From an uncultured Prevotellaceae bacterium (GTDB taxonomy: Bacteria > Bacteroidota > Bacteroidia > Bacteroidales > Bacteroidaceae): a stretch of DNA of 64,000 bases. Each line of letters begins with the position of its first letter. The stretch's first letter is position 1. The stretch is taken from contig ONSR01000004.1 in the NCBI GenBank assembly GCA_900320565.1, forward strand, positions 9,647-73,646, in the 5' to 3' direction. The notes under the pieces are model-generated. The model had not been told where the DNA came from. It ran no database searches and was given only the letters and a program-made list of their open reading frames with translations. Made by a program: the position numbers and the translations under genes. Shown here one piece after another: positions 9,618 to 58,552 of this stretch.

Positions 9618-9657
9618 TGCCTCTCCTATCTCCTCCCCTAAAGGAAGGGCTTCATTC

Positions 9658-11157: not shown

Positions 11158-12651
11158 ATGGCAATAAGTGAAGATTTAGGTGCCCTAATCAGGGAGAACT
11201 TCGACCATAAACCGACGAAAGAGCAGGAAAAAGCAATCATTTTGCTTGCCGACTTTTTGCTTTCAAGAGAGCGTGATACGGTTTTCCTCCTGAAAGGATA
11301 TGCCGGCACGGGCAAGACTTCTCTGCTGGCAGCCTTGGTGCGGACGCTCGGTATGTTGCAGCAAAGGGTCATGTTGCTTGCCCCAACCGGCAGGGCAGCC
11401 AAGGTGTTGTCGTCCTACGCGGGCGTTCCAGCATACACTATACACAGGAAGATCTACCGCCAGAAGTCTATCACGGACATGGATGTCTTTCAGAACGATG
11501 TCAACCTTAGGCAGGATACTCTGTTCATCGTAGATGAGGCGTCGATGATTGCGAATGATGCCCACGACACAACCGTCTTTGGTACTGGCCGTTTGCTCGA
11601 CGATTTGATGCACTACGTCTATTCCTGCGAGGGCTGCCGACTCGTGCTGGTGGGCGACACGGCACAGCTTCCGCCGGTCGGCGAGGAAGAGAGTCCGGCC
11701 CTGAGCCGCACGATGCTTGAGGGTTATGGGATGGAAGTGACGGAACTCCAGCTGACCCAAGTTGTCCGTCAACTCGAGGAGTCCGGCATTCTTTGGAACG
11801 CCACGATGCTGCGAAGCCTCATCCAGAACGACGAGATGTTCGAGTTTCCCAAGCTCAGAGGCAAGACCTTCCCCGACGTCAAAGCACTCCCCGGCGATGA
11901 ACTCATCGAGGCGCTCGAGCAGAGTTACCGTAAGTACGGAACCGACGGAACGATAGTCGTGACCCGAAGCAACAAGCGTGCCAATATATATAATAATGGT
12001 ATAAGAGCCCGCATCCTCGACCACGAAGAGGAACTCTCCAGCGGCGACCTGATTATGGTGGCGAAGAATAATTATTATTGGAATGACCGAGAACAGCAGC
12101 AAGGGGCAAGGGGCAAGGAGCAAGAGAACAGCAATCCTCTTGCCCCCTGCCCCTTGCCCCTTGCCCCTTTCTCCTTCATCGCCAACGGCGACATCGCGGT
12201 GGTTCGCCGACTTCGAAACGAGAGGTCGTTCTACGGATTCCGTTTCGCCGACGCCATCCTTGAGTTTCCCGACTACGACAACCGCGAGATGGAGGTCACC
12301 GTCCTGCTCGACACCCTGCAGAGCGAAGCGCCTGCCCTTACCCGACAACAGCAGGAAGCGCTCTTCCAGGGCGTTTGGGAGGACTATCCCGAACTGACGA
12401 ACCGACGCGACAGGATGAAGAAATTGCGCCAAGACCCCTACTACAACGCCCTGCAAATCAAGTATGCCTATGCCGTGACCTGTCATAAGGCTCAGGGCGG
12501 ACAATGGGAGCACGTCTATATCGACCAAGGTTACATCACCGAGGAGATGCTCACGCCCGACTATTTCCGCTGGCTCTACACAGCCATCACCCGCGCTACC
12601 GAACAGGTCTATCTCGTCAACTGGCCCGACTCGGCACTTTCCGACGCCTAA
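11158..12651 (+). CDS. RecD/Pif1-like ATP-dependent DNA helicase
   Basis: GYAGTGKT (Walker A), LFIVDEASMI (Walker B), VLVGDTAQLPPV, AVTCHKAQGGQWEHVYI. Confidence 0.85.
   Translation: MAISEDLGALIRENFDHKPTKEQEKAIILLADFLLSRERDTVFLLKGYAGTGKTSLLAALVRTLGMLQQRVMLLAPTGRAAKVLSSYAGVPAYTIHRKIYRQKSITDMDVFQNDVNLRQDTLFIVDEASMIANDAHDTTVFGTGRLLDDLMHYVYSCEGCRLVLVGDTAQLPPVGEEESPALSRTMLEGYGMEVTELQLTQVVRQLEESGILWNATMLRSLIQNDEMFEFPKLRGKTFPDVKALPGDELIEALEQSYRKYGTDGTIVVTRSNKRANIYNNGIRARILDHEEELSSGDLIMVAKNNYYWNDREQQQGARGKEQENSNPLAPCPLPLAPFSFIANGDIAVVRRLRNERSFYGFRFADAILEFPDYDNREMEVTVLLDTLQSEAPALTRQQQEALFQGVWEDYPELTNRRDRMKKLRQDPYYNALQIKYAYAVTCHKAQGGQWEHVYIDQGYITEEMLTPDYFRWLYTAITRATEQVYLVNWPDSALSDA
12096..12170. repeat. 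inverted heptamer arms (gcaaggg)n / (ccccttg)n inside the helicase gene
   Basis: Left arm 12099-12126 and right arm 12137-12167 are near-perfect reverse complements. Confidence 0.9.
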
Positions 12652-12693
12652 CCAGACGGGTCTCGTCACAAAAATTGACACGTCATCTTCGTT

Positions 12694-12759
12694 GCATATA
12701 CATGTATGTGCAATTGCATGTACATGTATATGCAATTGCAAGTACATGTACGTGCAATA
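12694..12759. repeat. 22-bp phased palindromic array, TACATGTA/TGCAATTGCA family (3 units)
   Basis: gcatatacatgtatgtgcaatt / gcatgtacatgtatatgcaatt / gcaagtacatgtacgtgcaata. A sister array lies at 32336-32401. Confidence 0.9.
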
Positions 12760-12876
12760 AACTTCCCCTGTCAAGTCGGATGCGACATCCTGCCGGAAGC
12801 GGTCATGAAATGTCGTTCCTTTACAAACAAAGGCAAAAAAATCGGCCCACATGATAGAAGTTACGGATATTTTTGC

Positions 12877-12911: not shown

Positions 12912-13883
12912 ATGAATATACTCGTTACAGGAGCGAACGGACAGTTGGGCAACGAGATGCGCATCGTGGCTAAGGACTCGGCGGACCATTACATCTTCAC
13001 CGACGTCACTCAGCAAGAAGGCGCAGAGACCACGTTCCTCGACATCACCGACCTCGACGCCATCCGCGCGATGGTCAAGGAGAACGACGTCCGCGCCATC
13101 GTAAACTGTGCCGCGTGGACTAACGTCGATGCAGCCGAGGCTCCCGAGAATCGTGCGCTCGTCGAGAAGCTCAATGCGACAGCCCCCGAGAACCTGGCTC
13201 GCGCCATGAAGGAAGTGGGCGGTTGGCTCGTGCAGATATCGACCGACTACGTGTTCGGCAAGGAGCCTTACAACACGCCTTGTCGCCCCGACCAGCAGGG
13301 CACACCGACCGGCGTCTATGGCGAAACGAAGAAGATGGGAGAGGAGCGAATCCAAAAAGTATTTAATGAAAAATTAAAAATTAAAAGTGAAAAATTAATA
13401 GCAAGCGAGGCAGAAGGTTCAATGGTCAATGGTCAATGGTCAATGGTCAATGGCGGCTACATCATCATCCGCACGGCCTGGCTCTACAGTGAATACGGCA
13501 AGAACTTCTGCAAGACGATGCTCAACCTCACGGCCACCAAGCCGCAGCTCAAGGTTGTCTTCGATCAATGCGGCACTCCGACGTATGCCCTCGACCTGGC
13601 ACGCGCGATACAAGTCATCCTCCAGAAGCCCGTGCAAGGCATCTACCACTTCTCGAACGAAGGCGTCTGCTCGTGGTACGACTTCACGCAGATGATTGCC
13701 CGCATCGCCGGACACAAGGACTGCGACATCCAGCCCTGCCTGTCTTCGGAATATCCAAGTCCCGTGAAGCGTCCCGCCTACTCCGTCCTCGACAAACGCA
13801 GCATCCGGGAAACCTTCGGCATCGAGGTTCCGTACTGGGTCGATTCACTCGAAAAATGCATTAAGAACATCATTGAAAATTGA
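12912..13883 (+). CDS. rfbD: dTDP-4-dehydrorhamnose reductase
   Basis: MNILVTGANGQLG start, YGETK, IIRTAWLYS. Carries a roughly 33-codon repeat insertion. Confidence 0.9.
   Translation: MNILVTGANGQLGNEMRIVAKDSADHYIFTDVTQQEGAETTFLDITDLDAIRAMVKENDVRAIVNCAAWTNVDAAEAPENRALVEKLNATAPENLARAMKEVGGWLVQISTDYVFGKEPYNTPCRPDQQGTPTGVYGETKKMGEERIQKVFNEKLKIKSEKLIASEAEGSMVNGQWSMVNGGYIIIRTAWLYSEYGKNFCKTMLNLTATKPQLKVVFDQCGTPTYALDLARAIQVILQKPVQGIYHFSNEGVCSWYDFTQMIARIAGHKDCDIQPCLSSEYPSPVKRPAYSVLDKRSIRETFGIEVPYWVDSLEKCIKNIIEN
13368..13453. repeat. mosaic element in rfbD: (aaaaatt)-type arm + spacer + (aatggtc)x4.7 arm
   Basis: gaaaaattaaaaattaaaagtgaaaaattaata ... aatggtcaatggtcaatggtcaatggtcaatgg. Confidence 0.9.
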
Positions 13884-13963
13884 AGATTGAACATTGAACA
13901 TTATTCCGACCCGAAGACTTAGGGCGCAGCCCAATGGTCAATGGTCAATGGTCAATGTTCAAT
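13872..13963. repeat. hairpin-type heptamer element across the rfbD stop and the rfbD-rfbC spacer
   Basis: Left arm attgaaa attgaag attgaac attgaac att, a 30-nt GC-rich spacer, right arm aatggtc x3 aatgttc aat. Confidence 0.9.
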
Positions 13964-17130: not shown

Positions 17131-19812
17131 TTATGCTGTGAGAAGCTCGATGAGTTTCTCGACGGCAGCATGTATGCCATCGGTGTTCTTGCCACCAGCT
17201 GTGGCGAAGTGAGGCTGGCCGCCGCCACCGCCTTGCATCAGTTGAGCAGCCTCGCGAATGTTCTTGCCGACGTTCACACCTGCTGCGACGGCACTATCCG
17301 AAGCTGCCGCCGTGAGCAAAGGCTTGCCGCCAGCAACGGAACCAATCACTACGATACTGTTCTCCACCTCTGCCCGGAGTTGGAAGGCAATGTCCTTAAC
17401 GAACTCCGGACCAAGTGGTGTGATAGCCTTCAAGACCTTGAAGCCGTTCACTTCCGTCTGCTTGGAGAGTATCTCTTTCTTGAGTTCAGCAGCCCTTTCG
17501 TGCATGATGTCTTCCACTTGCTTCTTGAGGTCAGCATTATCGTTGATGGCCTTCTGGATAGTTCCAACCAAGTCGGGAGCGTTATTGAAGAGCCCTCGCA
17601 GACCCGTTATCATGTCCTGCAACTTGTCCATCTGCTCTTCGACTGCCTTACCTGTTATGGCTTCGATACGACGCACACCTGCAGCCACACTGCTTTCCGA
17701 CATGATGCGAACCATACCGATGCAGCCTGTACTGCTTGCATGACAACCGCCGCAGAACTCGACACTCGTGCCGAACTGGATGACGCGCACCTTGTCGCCG
17801 TACTTCTCTCCGAAGAGGGCGATAGCGCCCAGCTTCTTGGCTTCCTCAATCGGCGTATCGCGATATTCCTGAAGAGGCAGGTTCTGACGGATGCGCTCAT
17901 TCACGAGGTGCTCCACCTCACGCAGCTGTTCGGGCGTCACCTTCTCGAAGTGAGAGAAGTCGAAGCGCAGGTAGTCGGGCGTCACAAGCGAGCCTTTCTG
18001 CTCCACATGGTCGCCGAGAACCTCCTTGAGGGCTTGGTCGAGGAGGTGCGTACAAGTGTGGTTGGCCTCGATAGCACGGCGACGCTCCACATCCACGCAA
18101 GCCATGAACTCGGCTTCAGGATTGCTTGGGATGCGCTCCAGCAAGTGAACACTTACGCCATTCTCTTTCTTGGTGTCAATCACCTTGATGGTCTCCTGCT
18201 CATTACAGATGACGCCTGAGTCGCCAACCTCGCCACCCATCTCTCCGTAGAAAGGAGTCTGGTCGAAGATTGCCTCGTAAACGACGCCTTTCTTCTGCTT
18301 CACCTCACGATACTTGACGATGTGGCAAGTGTATTCCGTGTAGTCGTAACCGACGAACTTCTGTTCTGATTGACCATTGACCATTGACGATTGACCATTA
18401 TTTTCTTCGGTGCCGGAATGGTCAATGGTCAATGATGAATGGTCAATGATGTGCCAATCGCCTGCCTCAACCTGGGCGGCATTGCGAGCACGCTCTTTCT
18501 GCTTCTGCATCTCAACGTTGAAGCCAGCCTCATCGACCGTTAGACCATTCTCGCGACAGATAAGTTCGGTGAGGTCCAAGGGGAAGCCATAGGTATCGAA
18601 AAGCGTGAAGGCTTTCTCGCCGGCAATCTCTGTCTTGCCTGCTGCCTTTGCCTCCTTCATCACACCATCCAGCAGTTTGATGCCTGTTTCGAGTGTGCGG
18701 AGGAAACTCTCTTCCTCTTCCTTCATCACTTTCGTAATGAGTTCCTTCTGACCTTCAAGTTCCGGATAGGTTGCTCCCATCTCCTGAATCAGGACGGGCA
18801 GCAGGCGGTAGATGAAGGCCTGCTTCTGTCCGAGGAAGGTATAGGCGTAGCGTACGGCGCGACGCAGAATGCGACGGATGACATAGCCGGCTTTTGCGTT
18901 GCCAGGAAGTTGACCGTCTGCGATGCTGAAAGCAATGGTGCGAAGATGGTCGGCCACTACTCTCATAGCCACATCGATGTCCTCCTTCTCGCCATAACGG
19001 AAGCCGCTGAGGTCGCCGATGGCTTTGATGATGGGCTGGAAGACGTCGGTATCGTAGTTGGACTGCTTGCCCTGAATGGCGCGAACCAAGCGTTCGAAGC
19101 CCATGCCGGTGTCGATAACGTTCATTCCAAGCGGTTCGAGATGTCCATCAGCCTTGCGCTCGTACTGCATGAAGACGATGTTCCAGATCTCGATAACCTG
19201 CGGGTCGTCCTTGTTGACGAGTTCGCGGCCAGGCACTTTAGCCTTTTCCTCAGCCGAACGACTATCGAGATGAATCTCCGAGCAAGGTCCGCAAGGACCT
19301 GTGTCGCCCATTTCCCAGAAGTTATCATGCTTGTTGCCGTTGATGATGTGGTCGGCCGGAACGTGCTTCAGCCAGTAGCCTGCAGCCTCATCATCGCGGA
19401 CAAGATTCTCTTCAGGACTGCCCTCGAAGACCGTCACATAGAGGTCCTTCGGGTCGAGCTTCAGCACATCAACGAGGTATTCCCACGCCATATCGATGGC
19501 TCCCTCCTTGAAATAGTCGCCGAACGACCAGTTGCCGAGCATCTCGAACATCGTGTGGTGATAGGTATCATGCCCGACTTCTTCCAGATCATTATGCTTT
19601 CCGCTGACACGCAGACACTTTTGGCTGTCCGCACGTCGGCGGGGTTCCGGGTCGCGAGTGCCAAGGATGATGTCCTTCCACTGGTTCATGCCGGCATTGG
19701 TAAACATCAGGGTCGGGTCATCCTTCACTACCATCGGGGCAGACGGAACAATCTTATGACCCTTCGACTCGAAGTACTTAAGGAACGAGTCGCGTATCTC
19801 ATTTGCTGTCAT
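17131..19812 (-). CDS. alaS: alanine--tRNA ligase
   Basis: [27 protein letters not shown] and the HTCTHLL editing motif. The first track ATG (19827) lies in a heptamer arm, so the second ATG is preferred. Confidence 0.95.
18369..18450. repeat. inverted heptamer arms (attgacc)n / (aatggtc)n inside alaS
   Basis: Arms at 18369-18399 and 18417-18450, separated by a 17-nt spacer. Confidence 0.9.
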
Positions 19813-20341: not shown

Positions 20342-20433
20342 CCCAGTTAAGTTGCCAAAGATAGCGTGTTAAGTTTGCAAAGATGGCACGTTAAGTTTGC
20401 AAAGATGGCACGTTAAGTTTGCAAGGATGGCGT
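20342..20433. repeat. 22-bp phased array, GCACG family (about 4 units)
   Basis: ...gcgtgttaagtttgcaaagatg / gcacgttaagtttgcaaagatg / gcacgttaagtttgcaaggatg. Confidence 0.9.
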
Positions 20434-25691: not shown

Positions 25692-25780
25692 CAGTACCTC
25701 GTCAGTACCACCACGGGGAAACTCCAGTACCACCGTAGGGAAACTCCAGTACCACCGTGGGAGTACTGGAGTTCCCCTAT
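25692..25780. repeat. 22-bp phased array, CAGTACCACC family
   Basis: cagtaccaccacggggaaactc / cagtaccaccgtagggaaactc / cagtaccaccgtgggagtactg, plus half units at both ends. Confidence 0.9.
25738..25776. terminator. hairpin between convergent queG and PHP genes
   Basis: gggaaactccagtac ... gtactggagttccc, a 14-bp stem formed by the last units of a 22-bp array. Confidence 0.55.
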
Positions 25781-32298: not shown

Positions 32299-32335
32299 CA
32301 TGGGGGATGAACAAACACGCCACGCAAAATTCTTT

Positions 32336-32401
32336 GCAGATACATGTATATGCAATTGCAAGTACATGTATGTGCAATTGCATATACATGTATGTGCAAT
32401 C
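32336..32401. repeat. 22-bp phased palindromic array, TACATGTA/TGCAATTGCA family (3 units)
   Basis: gcagatacatgtatatgcaatt / gcaagtacatgtatgtgcaatt / gcatatacatgtatgtgcaatc. Confidence 0.9.
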
Positions 32402-37003: not shown

Positions 37004-37090
37004 AATTCATAATTCATAATTCATAGTTAGGGACGCCTGCAAACAGGGCGAAAGAAATAATTATGAATTGATAACTATGAATTATGAATT
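37004..37090. repeat. hairpin-type (aattcat)n / (atgaatt)n element between convergent genes
   Basis: Left arm 37004-37029, GC-rich spacer, right arm 37058-37090. Confidence 0.9.
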
Positions 37091-37104
37091 AAGTACTGCT
37101 TCTT

Positions 37105-40253: not shown

Positions 40254-40335
40254 GCATGCCTAGTTGCTCAACTAGGCACGTCTAGTTTGCCATTTAGACA
40301 CGTCTAGTTTGCTAATTAGACGTGCCTAATTTTTT
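40254..40335. repeat. 22-bp phased array, GCACG family (about 3.5 units)
   Basis: gcatgcctagttgctcaactag / gcacgtctagtttgccatttag / acacgtctagtttgctaattag / acgtgcctaatttttt. Confidence 0.9.
40274..40335 (+). terminator. probable queA terminator built from a 22-bp array
   Basis: Outer stem aggcacgtcta / tagacgtgcct followed by aatttttt. Confidence 0.55.
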
Positions 40336-46975: not shown

Positions 46976-47098
46976 CTAAGTTCGTAAACACGGCACGTCG
47001 AATTGCTCAACAAGGTACGTCGATTTGCTCAACAAGGTACGTCGATTTGCCCAACAAGGTACGTCGATTTGCCCAAAGCGGCACGTCGATTTGTTCCA
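46971..47098. repeat. 22-bp phased array, GCACG family (about 5 units)
   Basis: gcacgtcgaattgctcaacaag / gtacgtcgatttgctcaacaag / gtacgtcgatttgcccaacaag / gtacgtcgatttgcccaaagcg / gcacgtcgatttgttcca. Confidence 0.9.
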
Positions 47099-52154: not shown

Positions 52155-52245
52155 TCATCCCCCTATAGGGGAAGAGCCAACGCCCTATAGGGGAATGCTC
52201 ACTCCCCTATAGGGGATTTAGCACTCCTCCCTAAGGGGATTTTTA
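52155..52245. repeat. 22-bp phased array of CCCCTATAGGGG palindromes (4 units)
   Basis: Palindrome centres at 52165/66, 52187/88 and 52209/10, plus a degenerate fourth near 52232. Confidence 0.9.
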
Positions 52246-58461: not shown

Positions 58462-58552
58462 AACATCCCCTATAGGGGAAATGCAAACGCCCTATAGGGG
58501 AATGACAATCCCTCCATAGGGGAATCGCAATTCCCCTATAGGGCGTTGAACG
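58462..58552. repeat. 22-bp phased array of CCCCTATAGGGG palindromes (4 units)
   Basis: Centres at 58472/73, 58494/95, 58516/17 and 58538/39. Unit aaacgccctataggggaatg nearly matches unit caacgccctataggggaatg at 52178. Confidence 0.9.

Follow-up and report, generated by a model that had tools for sequence, protein, structure and literature searches.

Within a 64,000-nucleotide stretch of DNA from an uncultured Prevotellaceae bacterium (the window; positions 9647 to 73646 of contig C49 of the source genome, G000), a helicase gene harbors a short, palindromic, in-frame cassette. This cassette quite likely is a translated, selfish palindromic ‘passenger’, one that is similar in its working to the Rickettsia palindromic elements (RPEs) and that is built of heptamer-array modules. 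More specifically, it would be one copy of a dispersed, non-autonomous palindrome consisting of (GCAAGGR)x4, a loop of the form GAGAATACC...CAATCCTC, and then (YCCTTGC)x4, and it would be part as well of a larger population of approximately 30-nt heptamer-array modules found in this rumen Bacteroidales lineage. Any special link between the cassette and this particular helicase is incidental, as the same cassette is found in many unrelated genes. The source genome is a 2.63-Mb metagenome-assembled genome (MAG) that is 89% complete, and DNA nearly identical to that of the window is found in the uncultured rumen Bacteroidales MAG RUG11599. All of the genomes compared here are MAGs, with relatives consisting of rumen and gut Prevotellaceae/Bacteroidaceae MAGs.

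Gene, variable loop, and cassette are arranged as follows, in coordinates of the window:

11158-12651, + strand: host gene, an intact open reading frame (ORF) for a 497-aa SF1B helicase (Dda/RecD2-like)
12064-12081, + strand: KNNYYW (residues 303-308), a block conserved in alignments that bounds the variable loop on its left
12082-12174, + strand: variable loop (residues 309-339), 93 nt here
12099-12126, + strand: left arm, GCAAGGG GCAAGGG GCAAGGA GCAAGAG, encoding GARGKEQE
12127-12136, + strand: hairpin loop, AACAGCAATC, a shortened family loop (GAGAATACC...CAATCCTC) that is 21 nt shorter than in the ortholog from genome G016
12137-12169, + strand: right arm, CTCTTGC CCCCTGC CCCTTGC CCCTTGC CCC, encoding PLAPCPLPLAP
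12143-12167, - strand (template strand of the helicase): canonical G-quadruplex (G4) motif GGGGCAAGGGGCAAGGGGCAGGGGG, the sole canonical one in the 64-kb window
12175-12192, + strand: FIANGD (residues 340-345), a block conserved in alignments that bounds the variable loop on its right

The hairpin is approximately 70 nt in length. Its arms (12099-12126 and 12137-12164) are 28 nt each, are complementary at 26 of 28 positions (93%), and are separated by a 10-nt gap; the near-perfect inverted complementarity that had been described in the original prediction is borne out. Tandem Repeats Finder (TRF) confirms the heptamer units, as GCAAGGG x3.7 at 12099-12124 and as CTTGCCC x4.4 at 12139-12169. 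Folded as single-stranded DNA, the region reaches -33.2 kcal/mol versus -14.0 +/- 2.3 kcal/mol for shuffled versions (z -8.2, with 0 of 200 shuffles as good), while as RNA it reaches -60.2 kcal/mol (z -9.3). Also as had been described, the element is in frame within a RecD-like helicase, just before the IANGD-coding block, with the element reading ...NDREQQQGARGKEQENSNPLAPCPLPLAPFSFIANGD and the ORF showing ...KNNYYWNDREQQQGARGKEQENSNPLAPCPLPLAPFSFIANGD... across it. The 75-nt cassette is without stop codons in all six of its reading frames, and therefore any copy that adds a net length divisible by three can sit within a gene and be translated.

The host protein is a Dda/RecD2-like SF1B helicase. 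That is, it possesses the Pfam domains AAA_30 (2e-27) and UvrD_C_2 (1e-21), its best NCBIfam model is RecD2 (1e-41, which is far below the equivalog cut-off), and its AlphaFold2 model (mean predicted local distance difference test, or pLDDT, of 84.8; predicted template-modeling score of 0.82) has as its top Foldseek matches T4 Dda (3UPU), DSH9, and RecD2. The helicase is also a core gene of the order, with a match in each of the 31 related genomes, and over a 32-sequence alignment no variation is seen in its catalytic motifs. In the AlphaFold2 model, no long stretch other than the insert residues 316-336 has a pLDDT of less than 50, and the insert sits between strands 298-303 and 346-358 of a small beta-barrel domain. 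As modeled, that is, the insert occupies a disordered, structurally tolerant surface loop of this domain, an SH3-like 2B beta-barrel, to which the cassette would add approximately 15 residues (GQGARGKEQ...PLAPCPLPLAP). Judging from this predicted placement, the insert most likely has little effect on the helicase as an enzyme.

The contents of this loop vary among sister species. The loop is 48 nt in the nearest element-free orthologs, which at 85-88% amino acid identity carry TEREQAANGVNSDSMA there, and only 24 nt (8 residues) in distant orthologs. Orthologs that lack the segment altogether therefore exist, rather than orthologs sharing it stripped of its repeat structure, and on this point the original prediction holds. 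Among the 33 closest species-level relatives, 10 are without the element and 23 possess an insert. The GCAAGGR cassette (type A) is found in seven relatives, and in three of them the left arm along with the start of the loop is triplicated in 42-nt steps. The G016 ortholog, too, holds this cassette, its loop being longer by 21 nt. Types B to F, found in 11 relatives, are nested C5-T/A-G5 palindromes, four to five different ones, with stems of up to approximately 40 bp; in the source genome, there are 58 such C5...G5 palindrome cores versus 4 for a G...C control. In two relatives the insert is an AATTCAA array (type G), and in one it is of a further, unclassified kind. In total, at least seven insert types are found in this one helicase loop. 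Arm and loop lengths change in steps of 3, 21, or 42 nt, and all seven type-A alleles (six distinct sequences, from different species) are in frame.

The inserts do not follow the gene. On a tree constructed from the gene without its loop, insert types are as scattered as are shuffled labels, with type A requiring six changes for six rows (well-supported branches force at least three), types D and E requiring three each, and type B two. Inserts of the same type are nevertheless 83-98% identical, a range that alignment of low-complexity arrays inflates somewhat, versus 78-87% for the genes overall and 51-73% for third positions. Element-free loops diverge as does the gene. Over the 150-nt flanks, same-type alleles display identities of 0.82/0.81 and different-type alleles also of 0.82/0.81, i.e., same-type flanks are no more alike. 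Homologous recombination of a larger gene segment therefore is unsupported as the source of shared insert types; indeed, with flank identities equal for same and different types, the insert would not have been carried on a long recombination tract. Intragenomic gene conversion is unlikely as a homogenizer, as loops in different genes of the source genome diverge more than do orthologous copies across species. This leaves three options for the insert: short-patch exchange, with the conserved KNNYYW and FIANGD codons as its limits; renewed acquisition at this site; or an old age together with constraint.

SufB provides a second case to set beside the helicase: The SufB loop of G016 holds half of a CCTCCAAAGGAGGGGGG (type-E) palindrome where the source genome has a GCAAGGR array. 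The SufB loop, too, is re-used by different element types. From a different perspective, loops such as those of the helicase and SufB might be viewed as exchange sites, at which unrelated hairpin cassettes replace one another, between co-resident rumen species and without flanking DNA, by a hairpin-targeted mechanism that is favored by loss of SbcCD, with either break-and-repair or a novel enzyme as agent. This we think rather unlikely, though if true it would mean that there exists mobile DNA that homes to existing hairpins inside of genes rather than to sequence.

Alternatively, the loop could be an adaptive one, i.e., hypervariable and under diversifying selection (such as for escape from phage-encoded inhibitors of RecD-like helicases), with cassettes swapped between co-resident species by short-patch recombination. 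The presence of at least seven insert types in one loop across 23 of 33 close relatives is consistent with this, as too are the conflict between insert distribution and gene tree, the conservation of inserts well above that of neutral sites, and the conserved 18-30-nt blocks on both sides of the loop, which might serve as recombination anchors. The same cassettes, however, are found in the loops of SufB, HemN, RsmB, and MutL, proteins without an obvious arms-race role, the insert peptide is predicted to be disordered, and ten species make do without any insert. We consequently hold an adaptive loop to be improbable.

The passenger reading draws further on what is seen beyond the helicase. The source genome is rich in heptamer arrays generally: Period 7 accounts for 155 exact runs of three or more units, versus 5-12 for periods 4-6, 8, and 9, and TRF reports 716 period-7 arrays in 148 unit classes. 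These arrays are 4-5 units long in 81% of cases, with a median of 32 nt. An inverted partner is found within 150 nt for 93-113 of 594 testable arrays (16-19%) versus 1-3 in a reversed-sequence control. Elements with A/T-rich heptamer arms exist in the window, as had been claimed (e.g., at 13871-13963, 18369-18448, and 37004-37091), the helicase cassette being their G/C-rich counterpart, and the loop core aggctacgccc is common to many of the A/T-rich pairs. It had been proposed, too, that what is conserved is architecture rather than sequence. This stands for period and size, that is, for the 7-nt unit and the 4-5 units per array that are constant over approximately 700 arrays and 148 classes. 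It does not stand for the hairpin, which, given that only 16-19% of arrays are paired and that most GCAAGGR arrays are single arms, is not the invariant feature, nor does it stand within the GCAAGGR subfamily, where sequence, in terms of both register and loop motif, is kept.

Arrays overall avoid genes, with 19% found in an ORF-open context (meaning that a reading frame runs on without a stop for 150 nt in either direction) versus 73% of random positions. Units that are stop-free on both strands are within ORFs 50% of the time, versus 4% for units with stops on both strands. In contrast to the arrays overall, the ORF-open context holds for 12 of 12 arrays of the AAGGGGC class, which is that of GCAAGGG, and for 3 of 5 of the GCAAGGA class.

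The search for other arrays of the cassette's own unit, the absence of which would have counted against the original idea, found 16 more in the genome, giving 17 GCAAGGR arrays of which four are full hairpins and most are single arms. Their hosts include SufB, a HemN-like radical-SAM protein, RsmB, the MutL linker, and HsdR, along with a glycosidase-like protein, an AddB-like protein, membrane proteins, and a signal peptide. The helicase, SufB, HemN-like, RsmB, MutL, and HsdR ORFs all remain open across the element, and copies other than that of the helicase occupy loops and linkers of unrelated housekeeping genes. For 9 of 11 single arms it is the G-rich sense that is read (GQGARGK...; p = 0.065), with the two C-rich-sense ones found in hydrophobic contexts. 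GCAAGGR arrays have in common a register, AGGRGCA...GCAAG followed by A, and the full hairpins have in common the loop motifs GAGAATACC... and ...CAATCCTC, as seen in RsmB, on contig C113, in the helicase alleles, and in a copy from genus g28. This common register and these common loop motifs argue that GCAAGGR arrays are copies of one element, often cut to half, rather than independent products of slippage.

Certain of these sites deserve individual mention. A second full GCAAGGR hairpin is found in frame in the MutL linker (G000:C49:78040-78135), just outside of the window, and genome G322 has a diverged GCAAGGR copy at the same position. At the DNA level, G000 and G322 hardly differ over the RsmB region (contig C111 in G000) and the cassette within it, while HemN is only 80% identical as protein between the two, which suggests recent exchange of the RsmB region. 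In G205, which is of another genus than G000, one ORF (G205:C43:18157-19309) contains a C-rich array of nine units along with two G-rich arrays built of that unit, inverted and approximately 420 nt apart; the gene segment could be prone to inversion.

Runs of three GCAAGGR units, with one mismatch allowed, are found in only 4 of 301 genomes of the family, i.e., G000 (17 matches), G322 (18), G205 (22), and G237 (1). A reversed control pattern is found in none of those four genomes, and has three matches in one other. AATTCAT arrays are present in 11 of 71 genomes and in 9 of 35 genera. The phenomenon, that is, is family-wide but patchy.

It is against this distribution that a purely local origin should be considered, in which arrays arise through in-place slippage on 7-nt units, the inverted arm arises by fold-back template switching, and nothing moves. 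Slippage has been proposed for heptanucleotides, which are the most abundant class of long simple-sequence repeats in many bacteria (Mrazek 2007, as cited in PMC4679880), and among helicase orthologs the arm copy number does vary in 21- and 42-nt steps. Array size is tightly peaked at 4-5 units, however, rather than broad, and slippage in place would have to account for the same unit and register in 17 arrays of unrelated genes, for a common, non-repetitive loop motif in full copies, including in another genus, and for the patchy distribution over genomes. Local slippage we therefore see as quite improbable.

How might the passenger move? Comparing filled with empty sites, 27 nt are inserted in HemN, 84 nt replace 18 in RsmB, and 93 replace 48 in the helicase, with 0-33 nt of target replaced at filled sites. 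Target-site duplications were not found in filled-versus-empty comparisons of HemN, SufB, RsmB, and the helicase. There is, to be sure, an exact 10-nt direct repeat, GAGAACAGCA, on either side of the left arm (12089-12098 and 12124-12133). The upstream copy is native gene sequence, found also in orthologs without the element, and the downstream copy probably owes its origin to the loss of 21 nt from the loop, as compared with the G016 allele; this repeat hence likely is not a target duplication.

As to enzymes, the Y1 transposase family of RAYT and IS200 (PF01797) has no match in the 89%-complete source genome, whereas the control search matched in 6 of 14 genomes, and mobilization of the RAYT/IS200 type is rejected for now on that basis. 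XisH and XisI, the distribution of which tracks that of TAACTGA repeats (PMC4679880), likewise have no match in the source genome, but the controls are silent too, which makes this absence uninformative. No gene flanked by GCAAGGR arms was seen in the source genome, Y1 being the sole transposase type that was searched for systematically. Given the absence of target duplication, the replacement of 0-33 nt, and no Y1 transposase found, the cassette would seem to have spread without a classical cut-and-paste transposase. Spread instead may be via break repair or via short-patch recombination, anchored in the conserved blocks coding for KNNYYW and FIANGD.

The tolerance of such long hairpins may be helped by an apparent lack of SbcCD, a hairpin nuclease, in the genus. 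SbcC has no match in the source genome and the only SbcD-like match, at 20.7 bits, is sub-threshold, whereas Bacteroides thetaiotaomicron and most controls do match. Nor was SbcD found in six of six genomes searched of the genus (g1), or in the GCAAGGR-rich G205, while 39 of the family's 71 genomes do have it; these absences, like that of the transposase, are provisional, as MAG-based. Across the same 71 genomes, SbcD absence was compared with possession of AATTCAT arrays; the association is weak and no more than a lead (odds ratio of 0.25 and p = 0.055, without correction for kinship), and two array-rich genomes of genus g37 are exceptions in that they possess SbcD. Lack of SbcCD is a plausible permissive factor for long hairpins.

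Several considerations weigh against viewing the cassette as a mobile passenger. Neither a mobilizing enzyme nor an insertion intermediate was identified in the genomes examined, and we thus infer mobility from distribution only; translation, too, is inferred. The high conservation of inserts could reflect selection on DNA, RNA, or peptide instead of recent spread, and the insert identities themselves are, as noted, somewhat inflated. The enrichment of the AAGGGGC class within ORFs, although 12 of 12, comes to only p = 0.023 versus the 73% baseline, and including the AAGGAGC class (15 of 17) gives p = 0.12. Lastly, there is the already mentioned provisional nature of the SbcCD and transposase absences.

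RPEs are the closest comparison. As found in an intracellular alphaproteobacterium, these are approximately 150 bp with conserved, peptide-coding consensus sequences (Ogata et al. 2000, as summarized in PMC10969869). They are dispersed palindromes, in frame in unrelated housekeeping genes, with the extra peptide compatible with the protein's fold and with no transposase known. The GCAAGGR cassette resembles them in being multi-copy, hairpin-forming, present in frame within intact, unrelated housekeeping ORFs that have element-free orthologs, and, per the model, at a tolerant surface position. It differs in its 70-90 nt size, its arms as tandem heptamer arrays, its being open in six frames, its frequent occurrence as a half element, and its hosts, which are free-living rumen Bacteroidales. 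Size and architecture set the cassette apart, and it is not placed in the RPE families proper.

Heptamer-array modules, for their part, are known, and unexplained, in other bacteria (PMC4692102; PMC4679880, citing Mrazek 2007). Xanthomonas and Nostoc have GGGNATC and GGGGA(C/T)T repeats (Rehm et al. 2015, PMC4692102), cyanobacteria have short tandemly repeated repetitive (STRR) sequences, and there is as well a more general heptamer excess (Mrazek 2007, in PMC4679880). The likeness consists of 7-nt units, a preference for about four units, many copies that overall are mostly non-coding, and a G-rich, four-tract variant. Here, in contrast to Xanthomonas and Nostoc, the G-rich class is nearly all intragenic, the units are GCAAGGR, 16-19% of arrays are inverted pairs, loops are family-specific, and canonical G4 motifs are found in 3 of 17 arrays. 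The TAACTGA repeats of Beggiatoaceae, Cyanobacteria, and some Bacteroidetes (PMC4679880) are similar as 2-6 copies of one heptamer, abundant and patchy over phyla. They are, however, one fixed unit located just upstream of start codons and almost never inverted (PMC4679880), versus the 148 unit classes, hairpin pairs, and in-gene copies that are seen here.

With MITEs (miniature transposable elements having inverted repeats), and with repetitive extragenic palindromes (REPs) and the bacterial interspersed mosaic elements (BIMEs), the cassette has in common small size, non-coding origin, inverted terminal arms, hairpins, dispersal, and polymorphism between relatives. Unlike MITEs, REPs, and BIMEs, there is here no target-site duplication, target bases are replaced, and no parent insertion sequence is seen; unlike REPs and BIMEs, no RAYT/Y1 transposase was found in the source genome and GCAAGGR elements are inside of genes rather than extragenic. 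The cassette, that is, fails as a MITE or REP on two counts, target duplication and Y1 enzyme. Palindromic amphipathic repeat coding elements (PARCELs) also are dyad-symmetric coding DNA, translatable in either orientation, with a punctate phylogenetic distribution that suggests horizontal spread. These differ in being 25-residue amphipathic domains, in long tandem tracts, within membrane-targeted accessory ORFs, and not single short inserts into the loops of core enzymes. The literature library searched yielded no account of in-frame hairpins with heptamer arms, whether from Prevotella or from others of the Bacteroidales.

The G-rich character of the left arm had led also to the suggestion of a G-quadruplex-like pattern (GGGG x3) on the coding strand. 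This was not sustained. On the coding strand the arm contains GGGG just twice, with GGAG in its third unit, and in silico prediction finds no canonical four-run motif there (G4Hunter 1.29). The canonical motif is instead antisense (12143-12167), where a very stable hairpin competes with it, and as such motifs are found in just 3 of 17 GCAAGGR arrays, they are not a property of the GCAAGGR family. A coding-strand G-quadruplex therefore is rejected, and the G-quadruplex idea generally is incidental. An intrinsic terminator is rejected as well, with no terminator-like site between 11000 and 13000.

That the element is a regulator or switch, whether because an mRNA hairpin or antisense G4 modulates transcription or translation or because 7-nt slippage toggles the gene as a contingency locus, is very improbable, notwithstanding an RNA hairpin of -60 kcal/mol, the canonical motif on the template strand, the formation of G4 in vitro by four-unit G-rich heptamers of Xanthomonas and Nostoc (PMC4692102), and the frame shifting that heptamer slippage entails, as the nearest orthologs lack the element and others have unrelated inserts (hence no conserved, helicase-specific role), few family arrays possess a canonical G4, the site is not terminator-like, and every type-A allele is in frame.

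If the cassette indeed is a translated palindromic passenger, then rumen and gut Bacteroidales hold an abundance of such passengers, which so far have been documented mainly in Rickettsia. It is a tractable case, given arms that are heptamer arrays, a subfamily that is open in six frames, and one protein loop in which at least seven alternative inserts may be traced across sister species. It may serve also as a natural experiment on the tolerance of essential enzymes to insertion, on the entry of new disordered segments into proteins, and on the persistence and turnover of hairpin DNA, possibly as tied to loss of SbcCD. For annotation, the cassette would explain many of the low-complexity GQGARGKEQ or PLAPCPLP stretches of MAG proteins, and such loops would be unreliable as phylogenetic characters.

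Other features of the window may be noted. An antisense open frame of 529 aa (11263-12852, - strand) spans the whole of the helicase gene, cassette included, which most likely reflects composition together with the six-frame-open cassette rather than a gene. Within rfbD (13365-13453) are two heptamer arms, AATTAAA and TCAATGG, which are in frame and not complementary. The CATTGAA/CAATGGT hairpin at 13871-13963 fills the rfbD-rfbC spacer, ending approximately 10 nt before the likely rfbC start.

The window contains as well tandem arrays with a 22-nt period, of about three units each, at 12692-12758, 20346-20431, 25703-25762, 32334-32400, 40260-40321, 46987-47093, 52159-52242, and 58467-58543. 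One 22-nt-period array directly follows the helicase stop codon, and some units carry the palindrome CCCCTATAGGGG. Genome-wide, this period accounts for 358 TRF rows and for 10 exact runs, versus 0-1 for neighboring periods (19-24).

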